This document shows positions 26,101 to 56,056 of a DNA stretch of 64,000 nucleotides, in pieces; position 1 is the stretch's first letter, and the number at the start of each line of letters is the position of its first letter. The position numbers and the translations under genes were made by a program. The notes beneath the pieces were generated by a model, which ran no database searches, was not told the origin of the DNA, and worked only from the letters and a program-made list of their open reading frames with translations. The stretch comes from Eledone cirrhosa (lineage: Eukaryota): the NCBI GenBank assembly GCA_964016885.1, contig OZ024742.1, forward strand, positions 141,174,001 through 141,238,000, written 5' to 3'.

Positions 26101-26933
26101 GACAAATCGTTGCTGAAATAATTTTCAGTGGGCTGTTGCTTGTTAGTGGTTACTGCTATTTAGACAGCCTTGTAGTGCAACATGCGATACGGACAATAAC
26201 ACATCTTTTGTGAGGGTTCGCGTGTATGCATATATATATATGTATATATGTATATATATATATATATGTATATATGTATATATATATATATGTATATGTA
26301 TATATGTATATATATATATGTATATATAGAGCAAACAGCACGGACACTCTATCTCAAAATTATTTTTGAAAAGCATTTAAAAATGCGCAACCGGTAAACA
26401 CTTAAAAACTTAAAACCACAACTGAATACTAACACATACAATCACTAATACTCTTTTATTCCTAATTAAACCATTTTTCAACTGTGAACAATTTGTCAGA
26501 ATTTTCTATTCTGTTTACCAATATGTATATATGTATATATATATATATATATATGTATATATGTATATATATATATATGTATATGTATATATGTATATAT
26601 GTATATATGTATATATATAAATTATTAAAAAAATAATGAATAAACATTTTGAATGCATCTCTTCTTTTCATGATATCCTGATTACATTGAGTTCTTCATA
26701 CGGATTGGACACAACCGTAAACTTTTGGTAGATTTATCTACATATGTATATATATATGTATATATGTATATATATATGTATATATGTATATATATATATA
26801 TATATATATATATATATATATATATATATATATATATATATATATATATATATATATATTCAAAACAACGAACAGCGGAGGACACGTTTCGCACCTTTCC
26901 GACAGACAACCTTTCCCCCACCCCGGAAAATAC

Positions 26934-26969
26934 CCCCAGTTGATGGATGTGAATCCGAAATATATAGGG
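26934..26969 (+). ncRNA. Degenerate hammerhead ribozyme motif
   Basis: CCC CAGTTGA T GGAT-GTGA-ATCC GAAA TATA TA GGG; two core changes. Confidence 0.4.
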
Positions 26970-27373
26970 ACAATTAAATCTCTCCCACGGTAACTCTCTC
27001 TCGTGTTTTTATTTTTATTTTTATCCTTTACGCTCTATCCTTCATTCCTCTACACGTCTTATACACGCCACGTATCTCAACGTACACCCACTTACATCTT
27101 TCTCTCTACCACCGGATCCTGTTACCCGGAGATTTACCCATCTGCATTGTCGAGGCTTCCAAACGATTTAAAGAAATTTACCTTATTATTCCACAATGCT
27201 TCAAGCAAACTTCAAAACTCTCATATATATATATATATATATATATATATACTTAGGGTAAATATTGATGCAATTCAATTCAAGCACTCAACGTACTTTT
27301 TCCACATAGGAGTGACGGAGTAAATATCGAATAAGTAAAAGCGAAGTAGTTTCAGATGTTCAAGTCCTTTAAT

Positions 27374-27447
27374 GCTGTGATATATATTTCAATGACGACA
27401 CTGGCCACACTGTTCTGTGTGCGAATGTCGTGACATCATCAGACAGC
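27374..27447 (-). ncRNA. Type I hammerhead ribozyme
   Basis: Reverse complement of the 28411 motif. Confidence 0.8.
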
Positions 27448-28410
27448 TTGTTACATAAAAAGGTTGTTTCCGAGGCAATCCACTTTCGGCAGGATAAATA
27501 CGCGGAAACAAAAACTAAGATAAATCCCTATTTTCCTGCACCAAATCGCTTTTGAACAGAAGCCCCCTCAATTCAATCTATACATTGACAAATTGACAAT
27601 CATATGGATCATTTTGCATATATGTACTCTATGTTTTTGCATTTATTCATTATTGGTTCTTTTCTTTTGTGTACTTTATATCTGTTTTTCTTTGGTTTTG
27701 TTCCATGTGATTGAAATTATGACTGTGTACCAGATTGACTACTGCCTTGAATACTATAGTTTACCCTCCGTTCTAATGTACGGCACTATCGTTCAATATG
27801 TGGATAGTGTAACTGTGACATTGGAACCCCTCTCAGAACTTCTTACTTAAACATCTCTCTCCATATTATTTACTCACCTCAATCCGGATTATCACTTGAA
27901 AAATTTTTTAATTTCTAATTGGTAATTTTTTAATTGTTTAATTTATAATTTCTGATTTTTGATTTAGGATTTTTATTTTTATTTCCAACTCTCACTCATA
28001 ACTTCTAATGTAAAACCATGATACCTAGAATTAAGTATATTTTCTCTTGGGAGTTGATGGTCAGTCGTACTGTCCATGCTTGGTGAGAGTTAGTATTGTG
28101 ACCTGTAAAAACTAACACTTACCCATCCCCTCTGGCTTTCGGCTGACTGCCACAGACGGGATGGGTAGCAGTAAACTATGGTACAGGCCTAAATGGGGCA
28201 TTGTTTGGCTGAGAGGGTGAACTGACTAAGCGAATTTCGTTGAAATCTGCGGTCGCTAATGGTCAAATTCCTTCGGACATGCGCCTGCGCAAACCGGTGG
28301 GGGTGAATTGGTACTCACAGGGGAACGGTTGAAGAACCCAAAAGCACACACTTCGTCCCATGTCGATTCAACTTAGATTGCCTCGGAAACATAACCTTAT
28401 TATGTAACAA

Positions 28411-28484
28411 GCTGTCTGATGATGTCACGACACTCGCACACAGAACAGTGTGGCCAGTGTCGTCATTGAAATATATATCACAGC
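28411..28484 (+). ncRNA. Type I hammerhead ribozyme
   Basis: GCTGT CTGATGA [long stem II ACGACACT/AGTGTCGT] GAAA TATATA TC ACAGC. Confidence 0.85.
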
Positions 28485-28513
28485 ATTATTATTAAAGGAC
28501 TTGGATTGTTAAA

Positions 28514-52310: not shown

Positions 52311-52381
52311 TATTTTATTATGCGCATTTCAAAAACAAACATCATCAAATAATAATATTTGTGTTTTCATCAGATAAAACA
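52311..52381 (-). ncRNA. Type I hammerhead ribozyme
   Basis: Reverse complement of the 53814 motif. Confidence 0.8.
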
Positions 52382-53813
52382 GGAGAACATGATATGAAGG
52401 CTAAAAAAACACTTGTTGATAGTGCAGTTTTAAATCAACATATGAAAAGTGGTTTTAGATTGATGTGTGATATTGGGAAAAATATTTTATTTAGAGAGGG
52501 GGGGAGAGAAAAGGATGAAAAGGGAAGGAGATGAGAGGGAGAGATGGGTGATAGAAAGAAAGAATTGAATATTAACTGTTAATATTCAATTCTTTATCAA
52601 TTTAGAATCTTTTCTCAAAGGCACATATACATACACCTCTTTAAAATATACCCATCTACCTTACTTTAAAGGGCATTATACACTCTATAGTACTCGTTTA
52701 CTCATTTACCTCATCCTATCTTCTCGTAAAACAATAACATTTGTTTTTGACATTTTGAATATTCATCCGCAATCATTATTATTTTTTTTCCCTCTATCAT
52801 AAATCTTTTTAATCTCAATTTCATCCTTAATTTATTATTATATATTTTTTTTAATATATACTCATATATTCTTTAAAATATACCCATCTACCTTACTTTA
52901 AAGGGCATTATACACTCTATAATACCCGTTTACTCATCACCCTCATTATATCTCCTCGTAAAACAATAACATTTGTTTTTGACATTTTGAGTATTCATCC
53001 GCAATCATTATTATTTTTTCTCTCTATCATAAATCTTTTTAATCTCAATTTCATCCTTAATTTATTATTATTTTTTTCTCCCCATCAACGAACTCATTAT
53101 TAATACATATGAATTCAATATAAAAACTTTAACTTCACATTATTTTTCTCAAATCCTATACATAAACTTTTTCTCTTTGCTAATTTTAAAATTCCTACAT
53201 TTCTCCTTTTGAATATTCACCCACAATTATTATTTTTTTTTCTCTCTATCTCCATACATAATCTCCCTTCGTTATTTTTTTCTCTCTATCTCCATACATA
53301 ATTTCCCTTCGTTAATTTTCAAATTCCTTTAATTTATACATTATCTTCCAACGGTTCCCAACCTCTCTATATTAAAACATTATATCTTTTTCTCAGTTAT
53401 AAAAACTATCTCTTTCTCTCTATCACCCATCTCTCCCTTTCCACCTTCACTCTCATCTCCTCCCCTTTTTTTCATCCTTTCCACCCCCACCCCTCCCTAA
53501 ATATAATATATTTTTTCCTCGCACATATCCTCCCTTCGTTAATTTTCAAAATTTTTAATTTATACAGTATCTTCCAACGGTTTTCAACCCCTCTATATAA
53601 AATATATCTCCTCTCTGTTATAAAAACTATCTCTTTCTCTCTATCACCCATCTCTCCCTCTCATCTCCTTCCCTTTTCATCCTTTTCTCTCCCCCCCTCT
53701 CTAAATAAAATATTTTTCCCAATATCACACATCAATCTAAAACCACTTTTCATATGTTGATTTAAAACTGCACTATCAACAAGTGTTTTTTTAGCCTTCA
53801 TATCATGTTCTCC

Positions 53814-53884
53814 TGTTTTATCTGATGAAAACACAAATATTATTGTTTGATGATGTTTGTTTTTGAAATGCGCATAATAAAATA
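53814..53884 (+). ncRNA. Type I hammerhead ribozyme
   Basis: TGTTTTAT CTGATGA AAACA...TGTTT TT GAAA TGCGCA TA ATAAAATA. Confidence 0.8.
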
Positions 53885-54614
53885 TATTGAACTCCTTTAA
53901 CCATCTTTTGATCTTATATTATATATATATATATATATATATATATATATATATATATATATATTTGTTTACTTACTCATTTTTATGCGTGTGCATGCAA
54001 ACAGGTCAATATGCGTGAGTGTAAGTATGTGTGTGTGTGTATGTGTGTGTGTGTGTGTGTGTGTGTGTGTGTCTACGTATCGAACGTATGGATGTGTAAG
54101 TGTGCGTGTGTATATAAGCATGTATACTTTTGCGTTTCTTTTGTGAGATAAGCGTGTCTGTGTATGTATGTACCCTTTTTTGTCTTCTTTTCTTTAATTT
54201 TTTCTTTCTAAATTTTTTCTTTCTAAATTATTGTTCCATTTTTATAAATATATCGAGATTTAATTATTACACTCCCTTACCTCTTTTACTTCCGCATCTA
54301 AGTGTACCTGTGTGTAGGTGTGTTTATGCGCGCGCCTTCATATTCCTATTCTTATGATGTATCTATTCTGTCTGTAGATTACAGACATACAGATACATTT
54401 GCCCTAGATTTTATATTTACGCACACTTTTTTCACTATACGTATACATATGTGCATACACATATATGCACATCTGTGAGCGTATATACATACATATACAC
54501 ACACCTAACTATATTTCTTGAAAGATTATTATATATTTCATATTCTAATTCATTTGTCTATATCTTTTTTTGATTTTCTTGACGAGACTTTCCAAGTATT
54601 TACCCATGTTTTAT

Positions 54615-54692
54615 ATTGCCTCGTCTGACGAACGAATGAAGACGTTTCTTTCGTATTCGCCTCATTCGGGAAACCTCTGGTAATGAGGTAAT
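54615..54692 (+). ncRNA. Type I hammerhead ribozyme
   Basis: ATTGCCTCGT CTGACGA A CGAATGA...TCATTCG G GAAA CC-TCT-GG TA ATGAGGTAAT. Confidence 0.9.
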
Positions 54693-56056
54693 TATATTGT
54701 ATTGATTTTTATACATTAAATTTTGCTCTGATACTTACATAGAGCACTCTTCACTTCTATGACCTTCTTCGTTTTTCAACGGAAATTTCAATACTTATAT
54801 ATATATATATATATATATATATATATATATATATATATATATATATATATATATATATATATATATATATAAATATATCGTTATATATATTAGTATTGGT
54901 GCTCTGAAATCGCGATGTATACATGAATGTATGTATAGTATATTTGGCAATATACCGTATGTTTAATTAAACACATTTTGAAGACCATTCTGTTTCTCGC
55001 TGGTTGGCGTTTATCAAGACCACACACACTCCCCTGCCTTTACCGAAAATTATAGAAGCTCGATTCTTATAGAATTCCAGTAATATTTAAGAGCTGATTA
55101 AACAGAACGATTGCCGGTCCAGCAAACATTAGGTATTAGTATTTGTGCTCTGAAATAGCGATGTATACATGAATGTATGTATAGTATATTTGGCAATATA
55201 CGGTATGTTTAATTACGCTAACAAGCGAGAAACAGACTATTGATCTCTCTCCCCTTGTTTTTACCGAAAATAAGTAAGTGACATAGTCACTACTTTAAAA
55301 CTCATAGCGAATGGTCTTTTTTTAAGATTAAACATACGGTATATTGCCAAATATTAATAAAAAAAATAAAATTAAAACATTTGGGCTTTCGGCCCAAATA
55401 TTATGGGGTCGCAGTGGAATGAATGGCACCTCGTAACAAAAATATTCAACGAATTCCACTTTAAAACAATTCAAAATAACCAACCTTCTGGAGCCGATAA
55501 TAATGGTTTCTAATTTAGGCACAAGACATTTACAACCTGATTCATTTCAATCGATTTAATCTTCGATGGACACCAGCTATCTCCTTTCTGTATAGGAACA
55601 CTATACGGACTGGATTTGATCTAGGAACCTTTATATTTAGCTACTGGTTAAAAAAACGTTTATTCGCTGTACCACTGATTCATGTTCCATAAAAGCACGA
55701 TGTCAATAATTGAAGTTTAGTTGAATTGTTAAGCAGTTCACTTTGCAATCATAAGATACCTGGTTCTATCCCACCATGCAACATCTTGAGAAAATGTCAT
55801 CACAGTCTCGGGTCAGTCTAAACCATAGGAGTAATATTGGGTTGAAAGAAACTATTTGAAAACCCATAACTGTAATTCAAAGAGCCAGCCTTGCCATACA
55901 TTGTGTTACGGCGAATCCCATTGTGAGCTACATTGAGTACTCGTGTGTATGGAATGCTCAGTTACTTGCAACCAACGGAGGTTCAGTTCATGTTGCTAAG
56001 TCGTATAGTGGAGAAGAACGTTATTACACATAATCCAGCGTTATAGATGTAAATAT

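Follow-up and report, generated by a model that had tools for sequence, protein, structure and literature searches.

A dense pile of hammerhead ribozyme motifs from Penelope-like elements in a likely Ctr2 intron of Eledone cirrhosa

The window analysed here is a stretch of 64,000 nucleotides from the 3.0 Gb genome of Eledone cirrhosa (contig C3, positions 141,174,001-141,238,000). Between 26.2 and 55 kb of this window, type I hammerhead ribozyme motifs are crowded together in truncated Penelope-like elements (PLEs) that end in (TA)n arrays, in what is likely a single intron of the copper transporter gene Ctr2. We consider it probable that this is a serial pile of about 21 truncated PLEs with their 3' ends at (TA)n, which likely arose by repeated insertion into split arrays, and that the hammerheads are likely slow-cutting passengers.

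Hammerhead motifs of the pile and their likely host gene

Judged by their sequence, the PLE-type motifs of the pile are real type I hammerheads or variants thereof, with predicted self-cleavage. A strict type I scan returned seven motifs in 26.2-54.9 kb and none in 100 block-wise dinucleotide shuffles. A flexible scan, which requires three stems around the core with stem I open, allows one core mismatch and had its parameters tuned on this same window, returned 17 motifs in the same interval and none in the other 35 kb of the window, compared with a mean of 0.33 and a maximum of 3 in 60 shuffles. The original prediction had listed about 22 hammerheads in this interval and none elsewhere, and both statements hold. 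Sixteen of the 17 flexible-scan motifs are sites on its list, and the other six listed sites were recognised as hammerheads or variants by hand parsing and comparison to family copies. By core, the 22 sites comprise 12 canonical, three U4A, four U4C and three other motifs. Three full motifs (31142, 26366 and 43059) and a 3' half motif at 37356 had been overlooked. In total the pile holds 25 full motifs, 12 with a canonical core and 13 variants, most of which are fixed within their family.

Three sites had been described as degenerate. This is correct for 50274, which carries a private GAAA>GATA change, but not for 50544, whose U3-A8 core recurs with the same letters at other loci and is therefore not decayed; 26934 has a variant core (CAGTTGA/CCGTTGA) with a compensated stem II. 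The U4C of 41961 is private to this copy, its family being canonical (CTGAnGA in 10/14 copies). The motifs at 41225 and 49203 have intact cores and the 6-bp stem II of their family, with a proximal stem I of only 2 bp, and stem I is just 2-4 bp long in several motifs outside the 17 of the flexible scan. Folding z-scores of whole motifs were mixed, ranging from -6.3 to +1.3 across 14 motifs of the window. A GAAA box before CTGATGA near 33850 and a lone CTGATGA near 42195 were inspected by eye and left out of the count. Rfam gave no hammerhead at gathering score in the window; its only hammerhead match was a weak one to HH9 at 45680-45750 (E 0.0037, 28 bits vs a threshold of 52), and its E-value scan of the window was flooded by microRNA models matching TA repeats.

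By self-comparison, eight of the motifs belong in pairs to the two arms of one inverted insertion each (27370/28404, 31437/33508, 39230/40697 and 52305/53814), so that the motifs correspond to about 21 insertions, which fall into about 17 sequence families when grouped by eye. The motifs sit in the 3' pseudo-long terminal repeats (pseudo-LTRs) of these (TA)n-targeting insertions. It had been predicted that elements of many families, ending in (TA)n, are stacked here with the ribozyme downstream of the PLE open reading frame (ORF) on the same strand, and this is what we found: the ORF remnant lies upstream of the motif on the same strand in all four clear cases (29780-29992, 32240-32581, 39121-38123 and 47960-48926). 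The notion of some 14 unrelated ribozyme families has to be abandoned, because several families share stem I and stem III sequences. Perfect TA runs are scarce upstream of 26.2 kb and crowded from 26.2 to 55 kb, and core-less PLE tails extend to about 55.3 kb. The pile is composed as follows.

26329..26520, plus: short 3' end of PLE type, U3-A8 core, GCAA box, motif 26366-26396 (TTGAnAA in 13/13 copies)
26860..27221, plus: PLE-type 3' end, CAGTTGA core (26937), stem II GGAT/ATCC vs GGGC/GCCC in relatives
27253..28751, unstranded: single inverted insertion, canonical motifs 27370-27453 (minus) and 28404-28489 (plus), repeat nested at 28514-28701
29430..29632, plus: PLE 3' end, canonical motif 29515-29594 (canonical in 24/24 copies)
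29780..31247, plus: Hydra-type endonuclease remnant 29780-29992 and motif 31142-31196 with a private C3U (9/10 copies canonical)
31416..33673, unstranded: Hydra-clade inverted insertion, short arm on the minus strand (motif 31437-31495), long arm on the plus strand
Long arm of 31416..33673, plus: GIY-YIG end 32240-32581, U4A motif 33508-33566, 88-nt tail
34061..36060, plus: remnant of a long interspersed nuclear element (LINE; RVT_1), not a PLE, flanked by TA arrays
37206..37418, unstranded: mini inverted insertion, abundant U3-A8 family, motif reduced to its 3' half (37356-37382)
37524..39128, minus: Neptune-like PLE, 5'-truncated at TA, ORF remnant 39121-38123, canonical minimal motif 37709-37747
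39193..40780, unstranded: single inverted insertion, U4C motifs 39230-39276 (minus) and 40697-40743 (plus)
40975..41306, minus: Nematis-like 3' arm, motif near 41228-41262, 2-bp proximal stem I
41316..41730, plus: PLE 3' end of a different family, canonical motif 41473-41569, head-to-head with 40975..41306 without TA
41879..42099, minus: PLE 3' end, minimal motif 41964-41992 (private U4C)
42152..43280, plus: TA-bounded block, U3-A8 motif 43059-43088 (identical motif at other loci)
43695..44184, unstranded: inverted insertion, canonical motif 43985-44052 (plus)
44538..45234, minus: second Hydra U4A copy, motif 44645-44703, long end
45642..47772, minus: PLE, canonical motif 45697-45743, repeat nested at 45969-46118, DKG-bearing N-terminal remnant of the reverse transcriptase (RT) at 47557-47772
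47960..49511, plus: Nematis-like PLE, 5'-truncated at TA, ORF remnant 47960-48926, motif near 49207-49240
49537..49655, unstranded: minimal Hydra inverted insertion, 30-nt short arm and tail, core-less
49685..50356, plus: older copy of the U4C group, motif near 50278, GAAA>GATA
50412..52163, unstranded: inverted arms of a U3-A8 family, motif 50547-50584 (minus), around TA arrays and a U4C copy
51085 to about 51990: the U4C copy inside 50412..52163, motif 51121-51169 (minus)
52190..53919, unstranded: single inverted insertion, canonical motifs 52305-52384 (minus) and 53814-53884 (plus)
53965..54795, plus: PLE 3' end, canonical motif 54612-54696

The repeats nested in the PLE copies at 28514-28701 and 45969-46118 we take to be similar to short interspersed nuclear elements (SINEs). 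At 41306/41316 and at about 51990, arms of different families are fused head-to-head without TA, possibly by one event from two RNAs. Two TA-bounded blocks (36850-37068 and 28769-28885) have long inverted repeats and no hammerhead.

Exons assigned to Ctr2 lie on either side of the pile.

19745..19996, minus: last coding exon of the Ctr2 copper transporter (MxxxM, GxxxG); Pfam Ctr, E 1e-13; 78% identical to the low-affinity copper uptake protein 2 of Octopus sinensis (P0241)
21182..21283, minus: internal exon; tblastn 62%, E 7e-7
22681..22751, minus: exon after the large intron, TTTTTTTAG acceptor at 22752, phase 0; tblastn 75%, E 0.002
57266..57325, minus: likely first coding exon, ending in TMRNHNA, donor GTAAGT, phase 0; 7/15 identities to P0241 residues 3-14, E 0.006

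The donor of the likely first exon is the best of all donor sites in the 141 kb upstream (score 23 vs 15). The pile likely fills most of a single 34.5-kb intron, in which the 11 minus-strand motifs would lie on the strand of the pre-mRNA and the 14 plus-strand motifs on the opposite one.

Element families and insertion anatomy

Three families of the pile have intact ORFs elsewhere in the genome, encoding 713, 775 and about 1217 amino acids. Pfam failed on all four PLE remnants of the window and on two of these three full-length proteins. The family at 31.4-33.7 kb, which recurs in the pile at 44.5 and 49.5 kb, is assigned to the Hydra clade by its diagnostic protein motifs. Its single ORF of 713 amino acids, found in four of five fetched loci, combines an RT with a C-terminal GIY-YIG domain (YRDD, NIVY..AYIG). 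It contains RWR (locus L113) and DKT (locus L117) or NKT (L113), a linker CNCRNRADC (CxCx5C) and CDLC..E..N..CKH, that is CxxC and CxH around E and N, and it has neither GxKF/Y nor CCHH. The unit is 3.24 kb long with an 88-nt tail; an exact 29-mer of this tail has 15,194 matches genome-wide (control 0), and a homolog search with the protein gave 1,249 relatives, none with a clade name.

PMC8557442, like PMC4209133, PMC7229834, PMC3088659, PMC2995048 and the preprint bioRxiv 10.64898/2026.07.22.740005, is cited here from the available part of its text, and all comparisons refer to that part. The Hydra-clade PLEs described in PMC8557442, including Hydra-1_Obim from O. bimaculoides, have the same C-terminal GIY-YIG, RWx, DKT, CxCx5C and CxxC/CxH and likewise no CCHH; by eye, the RT motifs of our family match those of Hydra-1_Obim in the supplement. 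They also insert at (TA)n, carry a hammerhead near the 3' end, and show an inverted arm that is truncated at its 5' side, the tail being confined to one end. However, few Hydra families with canonical hammerheads are described there, whereas one family has more than 22,000 copies and a fixed U4A here, and its tail of 88 nt exceeds the general figure of 30-40 bp. The missing canonical core is a departure from the described clade members and not from a clade-defining protein feature.

The family at 37.5-39.1 kb looks Neptune-like and that at 48-49.5 kb Nematis-like, as judged by motifs and by eye without a tree. The 775-amino-acid ORF of the former (RVT_1 and GIY-YIG) has GLKF, DKG, a CX4CxxC linker and CCHH in common with the Neptune clade, by eye, as well as an upstream second ORF; since the set GxKF/DKG/CX2-5CxxC/CCHH is also found in Nematis, it is insufficient alone for a Neptune assignment. 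The upstream ORF of 476 amino acids overlaps the RT ORF in another frame (L161:3285-4712, minus strand), and the element has a tandem period of 4,211 nt. Named relatives of the Neptune-like protein are mostly bivalve proteins or host contamination in symbiont records. The ORF of about 1217 amino acids of the Nematis-like family (L162/L163) has a C-terminal GIY-YIG domain and a long Asn-rich low-complexity block, and its start lies within the 3' tail of the element (window 49410-49511). A CX4CxxC linker with a short spacer is common to this family and the Nematis clade, by eye, as in the supplement rows.

In each family the ends fall at fixed points directly at TA, shortly downstream of the hammerhead cut site; for the Hydra family the distance is 28 or 116 nt. 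Among 115 arms of the Hydra family, 112 stop either 26-31 or 112-116 nt beyond the predicted cut site; TA/TTA-rich sequence adjoins 89 of the 115 3' ends, and five ends run into the next tandem unit. Head-to-head pairs combine a long with a short arm in 26 of 28 cases, and pairs of two long or two short arms were not seen. As the loci were partly selected, 30 via the tail and 17 via an endonuclease match, pairs of two short arms are harder to see. Other families likewise show two end types at TA. The Hydra arm ends match what has been described for a Poseidon element in vitro, with two internal RT start sites and both target strands cut and extended (PMC11167929). In this element, Poseidon of Anolis, the two start sites also lie downstream of the hammerhead and define the tail, and insertion in vitro works without ribozyme cleavage. 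In contrast to our family, its targets are AT-rich but not (TA)n, and in vitro the choice of start site does not differ between strands.

The idea that ribozyme cleavage determines where short copies begin at their 5' side arose from the Hydra mini copy at 49537 and was rejected: only 3 of 105 ends lie at -3..-1 and 3 at 0..+12. Since the 5' ends of the Hydra family are not piled at the cut site, the copied RNA was likely uncut. There is a mild excess at -52..-40 (12 of 105, vs 0 and 6 in the adjacent 13-nt bins). Several of these 12 ends are inversion junctions at the near-palindrome TTCAGAA, and such junctions account for part of the 696 apparent U4 copies considered below as well; an alternative for these ends is a transcription start at the 5' edge of the ribozyme.

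We propose that the element protein would nick both strands of (TA)n and that each nick would prime reverse transcription from one of the two internal start sites. The two truncated cDNAs would then fuse head-to-head into an inverted insertion. The start sites are only about 25-200 nt away from the motif, so that one or two motifs are deposited even by very short copies, and the high motif density results from copies of 100-300 nt that still contain the motif and inverted copies that contain two. Each insertion would divide the array into two still-usable targets, hence the stacking. The identities to the nearest copy range from 89 to 100% across families, and this spread speaks for serial arrival. 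Most motifs are predicted to be weak cutters as monomers, owing to a palindromic stem III, a short stem I or an altered core, and weak cutting would make the pile tolerable to a host intron.

Public sequencing runs were also compared with the pile. With the Hydra insertion at 31416-33673 as query, 0.23-0.75 of the words of the Hydra family occur in 14 public runs from 11 organisms and 10 studies; none of the runs listed was an RNA run. In one other organism, the Neptune-like ORF is deeply covered and the U4C insertion at 39.2-40.7 kb is nearly absent. Among the listed read pieces of four runs compared with 37530-41690, none bridges a TA junction. Outside the pile, the window contains LINE endonuclease and RT frames (16589-19139, minus), a LINE remnant with zf-RVT (62065-62676, minus) and a tRNA match of 63 bits (13699-13771, minus), possibly the head of a SINE.

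Genome-wide load and TA arrays

Hammerhead motifs are abundant throughout this genome. The flexible scan found 94 motifs in 75 samples of 10 kb, spaced evenly over 18 contigs, compared with 10-13 in shuffles, from which we estimate about 3.3x10^5 motifs genome-wide (bootstrap 2.3-4.4x10^5), or 2.6x10^5 at a stricter score. Direct counts with three disjoint patterns gave 111,408 (control 3,838), 35,847 (control 82) and 22,810 matches (control 0), that is 170,065 in total with 3,920 in the controls and at least 1.66x10^5 net, with many families outside the patterns. The pattern counts test boxes and not pairing; the matches listed are plainly family copies. Provisionally, this is the largest hammerhead load known to our searches, above the 126,247 type I motifs of the axolotl (PMC7229834), in a comparison that leaves the Schistosoma SINE totals aside. 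For PLE hammerheads, PMC4209133 gives counts of some thousands in a genome, with 9,000 in Xenopus tropicalis.

The axolotl motifs belong to the non-LTR retrozymes, which also carry type I hammerheads at very high copy number (PMC7229834; bioRxiv 10.64898/2026.07.22.740005). However, retrozymes are short tandem non-coding repeats, whereas the pile is made up of truncated coding elements: all copies seen in self-comparison are inverted or distant, and there are no tandem monomers of 170-400 nt with a hammerhead each. Retrozymes are furthermore excluded from vertebrate introns according to the preprint, unlike the likely intronic pile. Elsewhere in the genome, at L128:6131-7911, six hammerheads with a spacing of 311 nt (four minus, two plus) form a tandem array like that of a non-LTR retrozyme.

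Motif density in the pile is 5.9 per 10 kb, about five times the genome mean (1.25 in the samples, 2.35 in TA-rich samples); only four of the 75 samples had five or more motifs. Hits of the three patterns number 9 in the pile compared with a genome mean of 1.63. The pile, whose boundaries were drawn post hoc, thus tops the distribution, and near-equals occur every 1-2 Mb. Since the genome holds more than 160,000 motifs, similar piles are likely common, and the locus is likely one dense example among a thousand or more. The predicted hotspot is denser than every stretch compared, be it shuffled or ordinary, but it is not singular, since such piles recur.

The motif count of the 75 samples increases with TA content (Spearman 0.57; from 0.21 to 2.35 motifs per 10 kb), and PLE sequence touches 32% of the array sides sampled and 53% in the pile. 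Among 419 arrays with readable flanks, scored with an incomplete PLE library, 198 touch no recognised PLE, 173 touch one and 48 touch two. After removal of ten arrays that are internal or contiguous within one family, 37-38 have unrelated PLEs on both sides, where 16.6 are expected at a fixed rate and 37.8 under target splitting. The arrays measure 35, 40 and 44 nt with no, one and two PLE sides, respectively (p=0.24); these similar lengths give no sign of net TA synthesis. It had been predicted that insertions leave new (TA)n targets and that motifs are enriched next to (TA)n. The first part is compatible with the splitting of arrays, with no sign of net new TA, and the second holds for TA content, whereas close to long runs the enrichment is just modest. 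Self-reinforcement by target splitting is plausible, and the data do not separate it from uneven target quality.

It is possible, although we think it rather unlikely, that a pre-existing TA-rich or otherwise permissive domain has gathered independent insertions without any feedback from earlier ones. Uneven target quality also reproduces the number of two-sided arrays, the TA content of the samples ranges from 0 to more than 2,000 bases per 10 kb, and PLE-adjacent arrays are no longer than others. On the other hand, the homogeneous splitting model fits without a free parameter, and the flanking 26 kb and most of the surrounding 200 kb are TA-poor (1.0% vs 7.2%), so that TA richness is confined to the pile.

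Several observations count against a serial pile built by repeated insertion into split arrays of a Ctr2 intron. A model without reinforcement fits as well, with 30-51 two-sided arrays, provided that only about a third to a half of the unhit arrays can serve as targets. In the loci examined, motifs are only modestly enriched near long TA runs (67% vs 42% within 300 nt, 30% vs 26% within 100 nt), and same-family clustering on contig C1 is weak (18 vs 11.5 gaps below 60 kb, p=0.03; not significant at 30 and 100 kb). When the seven densest samples were extended to 30 kb, they held 6-13 motifs compared with 17 in the pile, and the densest 29-kb stretches in the first 5.4 Mb of C1 have 8, 8, 7 and 7 pattern hits, none reaching 9. 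The first exon of Ctr2 rests on a 15-residue match, and because this match is short, the intronic position is likely rather than shown. Just three families of the pile are linked to full ORFs. Finally, some motifs with a stable stem III may cut well as monomers.

Altered cores, host gene and significance

The Hydra family has an A at position 4 in 95 of the first 100 matches listed, and U in only 696 of 22,810 exact matches, some of them inversion junctions. U4A is thus fixed in about 22,000 copies, and U3-A8 in about 36,000. U4C is found in 10/10 copies of its group across two queries; several families have U3-A8, one of them together with A13C, and one family has A6U. The family with both, that of 26366-26396, keeps U3-A8 with GCAA for GAAA in 8/8 sampled parses and makes up about a third of the U3-A8 matches listed. 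As a predicted ribozyme it is likely weak or dead, yet it was amplified. The U3-A8 family of 37206-37418 has a 5-bp stem III and a GUC cut site at L113:6889-7000 (minus), where the full motif folds and looks foldable as a monomer. With 29 and 28 members, the two end types of this family rank among the most frequent TA flanks.

In general build, the motifs resemble the minimal PLE hammerheads of PMC4209133, which are of type I as well, with a palindromic stem III, a short stem I and a bulge after A9, and which also occur as opposite-strand pairs 100-700 bp apart. The U3-A8 variant is likewise present in Schistosoma PLEs (about 1,300 motifs in Schistosoma mansoni), while the U4A, A13C and A6U cores are absent from the available part of that paper. 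U3-A8 is a known active covariation; A6C and U4C lower hammerhead activity, although a viroid with U4C stays infectious (PMC3088659). No report of U4A was found in the literature searched.

These cores raise the question of whether the motifs with U4A, U4C, A13C or A6U are dead remnants of families that amplify without any ribozyme. Insertion in vitro does not require cleavage (PMC11167929), Naiad PLEs do well although they lack canonical hammerheads (PMC8557442), and the reduced activity with A6C and U4C points in the same direction. However, families of different sequence have all retained the stems, G10.1-C11.1, the palindromic stem III and the 3-8 pair, and the known activity of U3-A8 and the infectivity with U4C also speak against it. 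We regard such a complete loss as doubtful, while it deserves to be taken seriously.

Much less credible is the explanation that the pile is partly an artefact of reads misjoined at long TA arrays. About 30 arrays, some of several hundred bases, do separate multi-copy blocks. However, the Ctr2 exons follow in order, strand and phase on both sides, which counts against gross misassembly, and the pile contains no gap, the sole N run of the window being the 200-N assembly gap at 9379-9578. Matching inverted arms moreover enclose inner arrays (50437-50549 with 52011-52125, 96.5%), and the same insertion anatomy recurs genome-wide. It is also highly improbable that the pile is kept for a host function, be it intronic cleavage that tunes Ctr2 output or a source of small RNAs against PLEs, since the 11 of 25 motifs on the likely pre-mRNA strand and the double-stranded RNA that many families with inverted arms would yield are set against the missing strand bias, the private core mutations and decay in 31142, 41961 and 50274, the commonness of similar piles, and the finding that hammerhead cleavage within an intron left splicing efficient in human cells, where a faster ribozyme blocked it (PMC2995048).

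Earlier papers already describe hammerheads in PLEs, Hydra elements from Octopus and the targeting of (TA)n. A recent annotation of O. vulgaris (PMC13282606, 2026) reports 31 recently active Penelope-like families and hotspots of transposable elements; it was not found among the literature joining octopus with hammerhead ribozyme. In the literature searched, mostly without subscription papers, there was no closer count of octopus hammerheads or of nested microsatellite-targeting PLEs. Within our searches, the motif load, the non-canonical cores fixed in amplifying families and the likely position in a Ctr2 intron with 11 sense motifs are new. Only tentatively, we would go further and suggest that the largest load reported stems from PLEs multiplying their own (TA)n targets, and that throttled cores (U4A, U4C, A13C, A6U) became fixed in the top families because an RNA that is cut slowly stays intact for copying and because introns can then accommodate ten or more sense ribozymes.

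Since Rfam misses all motifs of the pile at its threshold, animal genomes may contain far more hammerheads than have been counted. The conserved Ctr2 gene likely tolerates 11 sense-strand motifs in one intron, some altered-core motifs are predicted to cut slowly, and altered cores occur in tens of thousands genome-wide. This genome is a natural experiment, in which recently amplified families with canonical and altered cores stand side by side, and because many amplified families with differing cores co-exist, the rate of cleavage can be compared with copy number. The role of hammerheads in PLEs has been called unclear (PMC8557442). The present finding is valuable for its scale, for the altered cores fixed in amplifying families and for the likely intronic setting, which together make this role testable here.

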